From the IMG/VR virus record IMGVR_UViG_2778261643_000011: a stretch of DNA of 5,783 nt; one strand, written 5' to 3'. Of the stretch, positions 201-789 are shown in pieces. Under the pieces are notes generated by a model. That model searched no databases and was not told the origin of the DNA. It saw nothing but the letters and a program-made list of their open reading frames with translations. Position 1 is the first letter of the stretch; each line of letters starts with the position of its first letter. A program made the translations under genes and the position numbers. The DNA comes from a virus (Duplodnaviria > Heunggongvirae > Uroviricota > Caudoviricetes).

Positions 201-533
201 TTAGTTACCGCTGATAGCGCGGTTGTAATCATTAACGTTGCGATTCTTCCTGTTAATCCCCATCAGCATCGTTTCTGTATCAAGGATATAGGCTGGCAGA
301 TCATCAAAATATTCACTGCTAAACTCTGGCATCCTGCACATAAATGCACTTTTGGGGGCAGGGTGATTAACCTTTGTCGGCGTCGGCGTTAAATTCGCTG
401 ATCGACTCCCGGAGCAACCGCTGAGTGTCAACAGGAATGCGCTGGCGAACACTACCCGACGCAACCAGTTGTTTCTGAACTTCAGCTTTTCGTTCCATTT
501 GTCTGTCTGCATACTTCGCTTGTTCTGATTCAT
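201..533 (-). CDS. Rz1-like outer-membrane spanin lipoprotein (o-spanin), overlapped architecture
   Basis: ORF in a different frame from the Rz-like gene, starting inside it (ATG 533, AGGAAG Shine-Dalgarno 7 nt upstream) and running past its stop. Has a positively charged N-region, hydrophobic stretch VVFASAFLLTL and lipobox LSGC, then a Pro-rich mature region (TPTPTKVNHPAPK). This matches Rz1/LysC-type o-spanins; start could alternatively be the internal Met at 512. Confidence 0.5.
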   Translation of the reverse strand: MNQNKRSMQTDKWNEKLKFRNNWLRRVVFASAFLLTLSGCSGSRSANLTPTPTKVNHPAPKSAFMCRMPEFSSEYFDDLPAYILDTETMLMGINRKNRNVNDYNRAISGN

Positions 534-789
534 TTTTCACTTCCTGGCTGTGAAAATGTTGATCCGCTTTATTCATCGTCTCAATGGTCTGGTTAAGATC
601 AATGATTGACTTATCGCGCTCCTTAACAGCCTGATCAAGGCTGCCAATTTTTTCCAAGGCTTGCTTTAACTGATAACGTTCCCATGCAAACCCAGCACCA
701 ACAAGTGCGCAAATCAGGACAAGAACACCAGTAACAGCAAGTTTCTCCTTCAAAGACAAAGCTGTTTTTAACGTTGAAAAAAACGACAT
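367..789 (-). CDS. Rz-like inner-membrane spanin (i-spanin)
   Basis: 140-aa ORF with strong AGGAGG Shine-Dalgarno directly upstream of ATG 789. Single N-terminal transmembrane segment (LAVTGVLVLICALVGAGFAW) followed by a charged, coiled-coil-like domain rich in E/K/Q; an overlapping lipoprotein ORF is embedded. Architecture typical of Rz-type spanins. Confidence 0.6.
   Translation of the reverse strand: MSFFSTLKTALSLKEKLAVTGVLVLICALVGAGFAWERYQLKQALEKIGSLDQAVKERDKSIIDLNQTIETMNKADQHFHSQEVKNESEQAKYADRQMERKAEVQKQLVASGSVRQRIPVDTQRLLRESISEFNADADKG

Follow-up and report, generated by a model that had tools for sequence, protein, structure and literature searches.

The window, a stretch of 5,783 nt, carries on its minus strand two overlapping genes with the layout of a two-component spanin, one for a predicted inner-membrane protein and the other for a predicted lipoprotein (Table 1). 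From base 60 to base 5720 the DNA matches phages P1 and P7 at 95.6 to 97% identity, and it is 100% identical to NZ_CP122822.1, a 99,950-bp P1-like plasmid of a porcine ETEC strain of E. coli, save for an IS91 insertion in the latter. The i-spanin shares 94% amino-acid identity with P1 PpfA and the o-spanin 95.5% with P1 Mlp. Together with the synteny upfC-upfB-ppfA-mlp-upfA beside uhr-hrdC-dmt, this identity places the pair in the P1-like orthologue group, and we use the P1 names here. In the P1 record, ppfA is described as having a 'possible periplasmic function' and mlp as a 'membrane lipoprotein precursor ... possibly involved in regulation of lysis'; upfB and upfC lie on one side of the pair, and upfA, oriR and repA on the other.

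Table 1. Annotated and predicted features at and around the ppfA/mlp pair (coordinates are those of the window)
Feature	Coordinates	Strand	Basis or remark
Terminal 59 nt of an IS91-family element, left boundary	1..59	.	Identical to the IS91 end in NZ_CP122822.1
upfA', next gene after mlp in P1	52..189	-	Cut to 45 codons by the IS junction 59/60
o-spanin gene, orthologue of P1 mlp (gp063)	201..533	-	110-aa predicted lipoprotein precursor, +1 frame relative to the i-spanin gene
o-spanin, mature part	204-416	-	Stop codon at 201-203
o-spanin, codon of the lipidated Cys40	414-416	-	Predicted from the lipobox
o-spanin, signal peptide	417-533	-	Part of 201..533
Dual-coding overlap, 167 nt	367..533	-	i-spanin codons 86-140, o-spanin codons 1-56
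i-spanin gene, orthologue of P1 ppfA (gp064)	367..789	-	140-aa ORF, predicted type II inner-membrane protein
AGGA ribosome-binding site of the o-spanin gene, within the i-spanin gene	542..545	-	Also marked in SpaninDB
Single N-terminal transmembrane helix of the i-spanin	685..741	-	Codons 17-35, LAVTGVLVLICALVGAGFA
AGGAGG ribosome-binding site of the i-spanin gene	795..800	-	SpaninDB marks the same site
upfB, directly upstream of the i-spanin gene	829..1674	-	P1 annotation; tail-tip 'tripod' protein
upfC, first gene of the same-strand cluster, PAAR-like spike tip	1626..1910	-	PAAR matches, P1 annotation
IS3-family element end, right boundary	5721..5783	.	95% identical to sequence upstream of an IS3-family transposase CDS in NZ_CP122822.1

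Architecture and earlier records of the pair

PpfA has a single hydrophobic stretch, at residues 17 to 35 (Kyte-Doolittle 2.48 in the best 19-residue window), with a net charge of +2 ahead of it and none like it elsewhere in the protein. The predicted topology is that of a type II protein, N-in and C-out, with one N-terminal transmembrane domain (TMD). The 105-aa tail is 35% D/E/K/R. In an AlphaFold2 model based on an alignment of 15 relatives, a helix runs from residue 13 to 111, is broken by GSVRQRIP at 112-119 and is followed by a second helix at 120-139; at low confidence (mean pLDDT 63), this is the charged, mainly alpha-helical periplasmic domain with a break that is looked for in an i-spanin. 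The mlp gene extends 166 nt beyond ppfA, which puts the pair in the 'overlapped' class, not the 'embedded' one. By the criteria of Summer 2007 and Kongari 2018, an o-spanin gene is expected to be embedded in its partner, to overlap it or to follow it directly, and the same overlapping layout was found in all relatives. The lipobox of the Mlp precursor reads LTLSG before Cys40, followed by Ser and Gly, so that the +2 position holds Ser and the Asp that should be absent there is absent; the predicted mature part has 71 aa. The signal peptide is unusually long, at 39 aa with an n-region of 26 aa, and Mlp carries an unusually large, conserved C-terminal domain.

The first-pass annotation had described this locus as an Rz-like and an Rz1-like gene, the latter encoding a Pro-rich lipoprotein and beginning inside its partner. 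Indeed, both ORFs are present, with the TMD, the charged helical tail and the lipobox, and the mlp start at 533 falls within 367-789. The Pro-rich character holds only mildly: 6 of the 71 mature residues are Pro (8.5%), 5 of them within the first 31, far below the 10 of 41 (24%) in lambda Rz1. As for the periplasmic Cys of characterized spanin complexes, which that annotation had raised for each partner, Mlp has one and PpfA has none. The only Cys of PpfA, C27, falls within the transmembrane segment, and relatives have G or A in its place; the periplasmic Cys of Mlp, Cys66 (position 27 of the mature protein), is invariant and provides the at least one periplasmic Cys expected of a spanin pair. 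This pattern is ordinary by the counts of Kongari 2018, in which one or more periplasmic Cys occur in 507 of 528 spanin systems, none occurs in 169 of 526 i-spanins (the commonest class) and 72 systems have a single Cys in total. Since PpfA lacks a periplasmic Cys, the Rz-Rz disulfides of lambda are impossible here, and a homodimer link of the Rz1 type is possible; by analogy with Cys29 of lambda Rz1, Cys66 probably joins two Mlp molecules through a disulfide.

The pair has been catalogued before. SpaninDB (Kongari 2018) enters P1 (NC_005856) as an 'ovl' two-component system with gp064 as the i-spanin and gp063 as the o-spanin. It lists gp064 at 140 aa, of which 104 are periplasmic, with a TMD ending at residue 36 and 0 periplasmic Cys ('one in TMD'), and gp063 at 110 aa, of which 71 are mature, with lipobox TLSG, 1 periplasmic Cys, LipoP cleavage at 39 and the remark 'too long signal sequence'. 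Each of these values was reproduced independently from the window. Bednarek 2022, citing Summer 2007, names ppfA/mlp as the P1 spanin pair; there ppfA is called the o-spanin and mlp the i-spanin, which inverts the roles that their sequences show. The RefSeq entry for P7 and several P1-like records already annotate the pair as Rz-like spanin or Rz/Rz1. Likewise, all PHROG matches of the i-spanin (89, with E 6.6e-23, 739 and 214) and of the o-spanin (30284, with E 2e-74, and 456, with E 6e-5) are labelled 'Rz-like spanin'. The literature thus already covers the pair, the overlap of its genes, the placing of its Cys residues and the fact that it stands apart from the rest of the P1 lysis genes (Summer 2007; Kongari 2018; Bednarek 2022). 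In the literature as here, it is the architecture that suggests a spanin function for PpfA/Mlp.

Conservation and range of the overlapping frame

Automatic gene callers miss the full mlp ORF, which could mean that 201-533 is a chance open frame running across the end of a real gene, and not a gene. Stop-free off-frame runs inside the window genes have a median length of 9 codons, and one inside dmt reaches 164, so ORF length alone is not decisive for mlp. The 164-aa dmt ORF served as a negative control: a stop interrupts it in both divergent relatives tested. In contrast, every relative examined, even at identities as low as about 35-60%, keeps the mlp frame open. The relatives compared were Cronobacter phage JK004 and P1-like contigs of Salmonella and Klebsiella aerogenes, in which the i-spanin is 57-62% identical, and a more distant 94-kb P1-like contig of IMG/VR (profile E 7e-24). 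Kept across the mlp relatives are the first ATG, the lipobox LTL[SN][GA]C, Ser at +2, FMC[RT]MP with Cys66, and DDLP.YILD...INRKN. Cys66 is invariant in 5 aligned sequences and in L020, and the lipobox is invariant or conservatively varied (S/N, G/A). Moreover, the non-overlapped half of mlp is under purifying selection, with a pN of 0.12-0.18 versus a pS of 0.70-0.84. In the ppfA frame pS is 0.69-0.75 outside the overlap and 0.52-0.58 within it, a reduction expected from dual coding; the overlapped C-terminal 55 aa are the most conserved part of the i-spanin. With the start, lipobox, Cys66 and C-terminal motif retained where the i-spanins are only 57-62% identical, and in one weaker relative as well, and with the dmt ORF closed in the same relatives, the comparative data rule out a chance origin of mlp for all practical purposes.

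The pair is widespread within one group of elements. An i-spanin identical to that of the window is found in 951 blocks of the assembly collection, for the most part on contigs of 20-200 kb, and a survey of P1-like phage-plasmids places mlp and ppfA among the 21 most conserved genes. The order ban ... dmt-hrdC-uhr / upfC-upfB-ppfA-mlp-upfA-repA-parAB-gp23 is kept in the 8 places listed, barring local insertions and frameshifts, and no relative, down to E 7e-24, departs from upfC-upfB-ppfA-mlp. No relative inside a canonical lysis cassette was found by tblastn of both proteins against 50,697 phage records or by word-seeded HMMER searches. A full HMMER scan of 1.84 billion representatives returned P1-like elements and two more distant full-length relatives, and likewise found none in a canonical cassette. 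Of the two, P0082 belongs to a P1-like contig of 94 kb that keeps the gene order, and P0085 had no match in IMG/VR. The remaining weak HMMER matches are coiled-coil repeats. At the sensitivity available, these searches confine the family to P1-like elements. Annotation pipelines miss the overlapped o-spanin of such phage-plasmids and call only stubs of 43-52 aa, leaving hundreds of public records without an o-spanin gene; correct annotation is where the importance of the locus lies, with little beyond it.

Position, timing and proposed role in lysis

Apart from the pair, the genes of the window are upfA', upfB, upfC (PAAR), uhr, rdgC/hrdC and dmt, which bears out the first-pass statement that no holin or endolysin gene is adjacent. 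The likely true start of upfB is Met20, at 1617, where its PHROG 1559 match begins (residue 20). In no relative do the spanin genes directly follow a holin and an endolysin gene; the neighbors are upfB/upfC and upfA/repA throughout. A position after the holin and endolysin is typical of lysis cassettes and not defining for spanins. Beyond the window, both partners are present in the 100%-identical plasmid NZ_CP122822.1. The spanins there occupy 54.6-55.2 kb; the holin-family genes (85.0-85.6 kb) are about 30 kb distant from them, and the lysozyme gene (96.3-96.9 kb) about 41 kb. By position, the two holin-family genes and the gene after them (85.0-86.1 kb) correspond to lydC, lydA and lydB. 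The same holds for P1, whose ppfA/mlp operon is unlinked to lyz and lydA/lydB, and which is atypical in both the number and the organization of its lysis genes, with lyz-lydD-lydE, lydA-lydB and lydC elsewhere (Bednarek 2022). The first-pass annotation had offered two explanations for the missing neighbors. Of these, lysis genes split across operons is the correct one, in line with the positions in NZ_CP122822.1 and with the P1 literature; the other was deployment of the pair with different partners. That P1 has a spanin pair with neither holin nor endolysin next to it is already documented.

How such a pair might be expressed late is suggested by gene order. Cryo-EM of the P1 virion identified UpfC as the PAAR-like spike tip and UpfB as a 'tripod' at the tail end (PMC12810830). 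Since both are virion parts, the cluster should be late; ppfA and mlp, probably co-transcribed with upfC and upfB upstream, would in this way be timed late outside any lysis cassette. The P1 late-promoter motif AAGTNACTT-N4-TANNNT has no match on the minus strand upstream of the cluster and its total matches are not above chance; the motif was derived from only two annotated examples, LP23 and P7 LPdam2, and makes weak evidence. The P1 record shows only predicted sigma-70 promoters near the cluster, inside upfB.

The identity of the genes, their architecture and sorting signals, the conservation of both frames and the distance to the partner genes are supported directly, and we put the probability that the pair is the P1-type two-component spanin ppfA/mlp, bridging and fusion mechanism included, at about 0.88. 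The lambda spanins bridge the inner and outer membranes and fuse them after murein degradation (Berry 2008, 2012; Rajaure 2015, cited in Bednarek 2022), and it is from this paradigm that we infer PpfA-Mlp complex formation, the disulfide and membrane fusion. PpfA would be anchored in the inner membrane by its N-terminal helix, with the long charged helical domain reaching into the periplasm. Mlp would be exported, cut by signal peptidase II between LTLSG and Cys40, and lipidated on that Cys; because residue +2 is Ser, it would be sorted to the inner leaflet of the outer membrane. The two proteins would bind through their C-terminal parts and so bridge the periplasm through the peptidoglycan mesh. 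Late in infection, the holin/antiholin LydA/LydB (and others) and the SAR endolysin Lyz, encoded tens of kb away, would destroy the wall, whereupon the freed spanin complexes would collapse and fuse the inner and outer membranes, completing lysis.

The identity to P1 ends abruptly at bases 60 and 5720, at the ends of an IS91-family and an IS3-family element, and Rfam and tRNA scans of the window gave no matches. Bases 1-59 are a multi-copy sequence in E. coli plasmids, and the IS91 end stands in the opposite orientation to the NZ_CP122822.1 copy, which sits inside upfB (window coordinate 991/992); 4,643 of 5,426 E. coli genomes contain the sequence of bases 5721-5783. The genes might lie on a stranded, IS-bracketed fragment of a P1-like element, for example one taken up by a different plasmid or a chromosome, as inert cargo without holin or endolysin genes alongside them on that element. 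P1 upfA encodes 130 aa, the PHROG 1453 match of upfA' spans only positions 1-40 of 129, and the 45 codons left of upfA are not contiguous here with the plasmid replicon, which in all relatives comes next after this gene. Searches of complete E. coli genomes, GTDB representatives and IMG/VR turned up neither of the two junctions. Against this, IS insertions are common in otherwise complete P1-like phage-plasmids, and NZ_CP122822.1 itself is a 100-kb P1-like genome that carries IS91, IS1203, IS421 and an IS3-family copy. In addition, upfA is a published insertion hot spot, and the segment matches that plasmid at 100% identity, with its six other ORFs all intact. We consider a stranded fragment unlikely, though it deserves to be kept in mind; the window may come from a complete phage-plasmid with IS insertions or from such a fragment, and 5.8 kb is compatible with either.

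A different objection concerns function. In genome-wide CRISPRi of P1, ppfA gave an EOP of about 1.2-1.3 and mlp one of 0.19-0.24, both scored as non-essential for plaque formation, and the same method scored lambda Rz as essential. These scores suggest that plaques can form without the putative P1 spanins. Instead of serving lysis, or besides it, PpfA and Mlp could span the envelope in another role, for example as a functional part of the tail-tip module UpfC/UpfB that acts on the envelope at entry or in exclusion, in which case outer-membrane disruption in P1 would fall to something else. The invariant order upfC-upfB-ppfA-mlp next to genes for spike-tip parts of the virion would fit such a role, as would the putative status of the lytic function and the finding, by tblastn and HMMER, of no relative inside a canonical lysis cassette. 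However, every defining spanin feature is present, and the virion inventory from cryo-EM, which includes UpfB and UpfC, does not include PpfA or Mlp (PMC12810830). The CRISPRi assay does not discriminate here, since upfB and upfC were scored as non-essential too, and the dispensability of spanins for lysis in shaken laboratory cultures (Bednarek 2022) may explain the scores of ppfA and mlp. Unlinked spanin genes, moreover, are normal in some phages, such as T4 with pseT.3/pseT.2. CRISPRi non-essentiality weakens the spanin assignment and does not overturn it, and a non-lytic role has a slim chance of being correct. Slightly less probable again is that PpfA/Mlp is a spanin-like bridge with a different or additional job and is not the outer-membrane disruptor of P1, or not its sole one; if true, P1 would rely on another factor for the last step of lysis. 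The large C-terminal domain of Mlp speaks for this reading, as do the constant link to upfC-upfB, the CRISPRi scores and the searches that found no relative in a canonical lysis cassette. The reading of PpfA/Mlp as the P1 spanin is retained.

Comparison with characterized spanins

Homology to lambda Rz was considered and rejected: neither protein has a Pfam match at E <= 0.01, and hhalign of the PpfA alignment against lambda Rz gave a probability of 1.5%, which leaves the pair outside the lambda Rz/Rz1 family. PpfA/Mlp would accordingly count as a functional analogue of Rz/Rz1 and not as a detectable homologue, linked to proven spanins by architecture and by the PHROG labels. Like Rz and Rz1, the window pair consists of a predicted type II inner-membrane protein with a helical periplasmic domain and an outer-membrane lipoprotein in the +1 frame, and in both systems the o-spanin has one periplasmic Cys. 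In lambda the second gene is embedded, whereas here it overlaps; lambda Rz has two periplasmic Cys and PpfA none; and the lambda spanin genes follow the holin and endolysin genes, which the window pair does not. The mature o-spanin also differs, at 71 aa with a conserved C-terminal domain, versus about 40 aa for the far richer-in-Pro lambda Rz1.

The LysB/LysC pair of phage P2 shares the overlapped architecture, and the window i-spanin has a weak match to the P2 LysB model NCBIfam TIGR03495 (phage_LysB), with E 0.002 and 18 bits versus a cut-off of 93. The P2 genes lysB and lysC sit in a lysis cassette beside the holin and endolysin genes. T4 carries pseT.3/pseT.2 unlinked to its genes for holin and endolysin, t and e, and its i-spanin, like PpfA, has no periplasmic Cys. 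No sequence similarity to PseT.3/PseT.2 was seen, and the T4 spanin genes are separated and non-overlapping, whereas the window genes overlap; the T4 o-spanin has two Cys that form an intramolecular bond, whereas Mlp has its one periplasmic Cys. The closest counterparts are PpfA and Mlp of P1 and P7, entered in SpaninDB as the 'P1' family of overlapped two-component spanins, which have the same lengths (140 and 110 aa), overlap, ribosome-binding sites, lipobox, Cys pattern and neighbors as the window pair; the latter differs from them by a few substitutions and by a downstream upfA that is cut by the IS91 end.

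Under-annotation of the overlapped o-spanin gene

In P1-like relatives of the window, the o-spanin gene mlp, overlapped with the i-spanin gene ppfA, is missed by PGAP and other gene callers: the records hold either only its last 43-52 codons, labelled "hypothetical protein", or no call whatever. Because gene callers skip the overlapped frame, many public P1-like records lack the gene. In the Introduction of Bednarek et al. 2022 the two roles are exchanged, with ppfA given as o-spanin and mlp as i-spanin (PMC9025707); the sequences and SpaninDB (the spanin tables of Kongari 2018) show the opposite. 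A 164-aa off-frame ORF within dmt, the methyltransferase gene, served as the negative control against which the mlp frame was judged. This candidate was rejected as a gene and is a chance ORF, because a stop breaks its frame in Cronobacter phage JK004 and the IMG/VR relative L020.

Features of the window and of P1-like relatives (L-numbers; o-spanin rows give the site of the short or missing call)
Feature	Location	Strand	Remark
IS91-family terminus	window 1-59		left border of P1-derived segment
upfA'	window 52-189	-	truncated
upfB	window 829-1674	-	281 aa, as annotated in P1
upfC	window 1626-1910	-	
C1 operator	window 1992-2008	+	match to ATTGCTCTAATAAATTT
dmt	window 3259-5277	+	Dcm-Dam fusion
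Off-frame ORF	window 3560-4054	+	rejected
C1 operator	window 5268-5284	+	match to ATTGCTCTAATAAATTT
C1 operator	window 5279-5295	-	match to ATTGCTCTAATAAATTT
IS3-family terminus	window 5721-5783		right border of P1-derived segment
o-spanin gene	L003 4142-4273		under-annotated
o-spanin gene	L016 5196-5330		under-annotated
o-spanin gene	L009 10449-10589		under-annotated
o-spanin gene	L011 10458-10589		under-annotated
o-spanin gene	L013 10449-10589		under-annotated
o-spanin gene	L017 3431-3589		under-annotated
dmt	L009 4493-7534		1013 aa

Insertion-sequence borders and neighboring genes

The IS3-family terminus is presumably IS2-like. The IS91-family terminus is identical to the end of an IS91 copy in the P1-like E. 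coli plasmid NZ_CP122822.1, where that copy interrupts upfB. No match to either IS junction of the window came up when complete E. coli genomes, GTDB representatives and IMG/VR were searched. The IS91 junction cuts upfA, leaving 45 of 130 codons; this gene is an insertion hot spot in P1-like phage-plasmids, e.g., for blaCTX-M-55 in JL22 (PMC9603915). As annotated in P1, upfB shares 49 nt with upfC. The PHROG match begins at Met20 (window 1617), as do independent gene calls; this is probably the true start and gives a 262-aa product free of the upfC overlap.

C1 operators and Dmt length

The P1 C1-repressor operator sites match ATTGCTCTAATAAATTT with 0-2 mismatches, where none is expected by chance, and are the counterparts of P1 Odmt and the divalent Oban operator. 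In L009, weak Hint_2 and faint LAGLIDADG_3 matches (Pfam) in the longer Dmt suggest an intein-like insertion. The window dmt product is of the P7 type, with 672 aa, whereas P1 Dmt has 754 aa.
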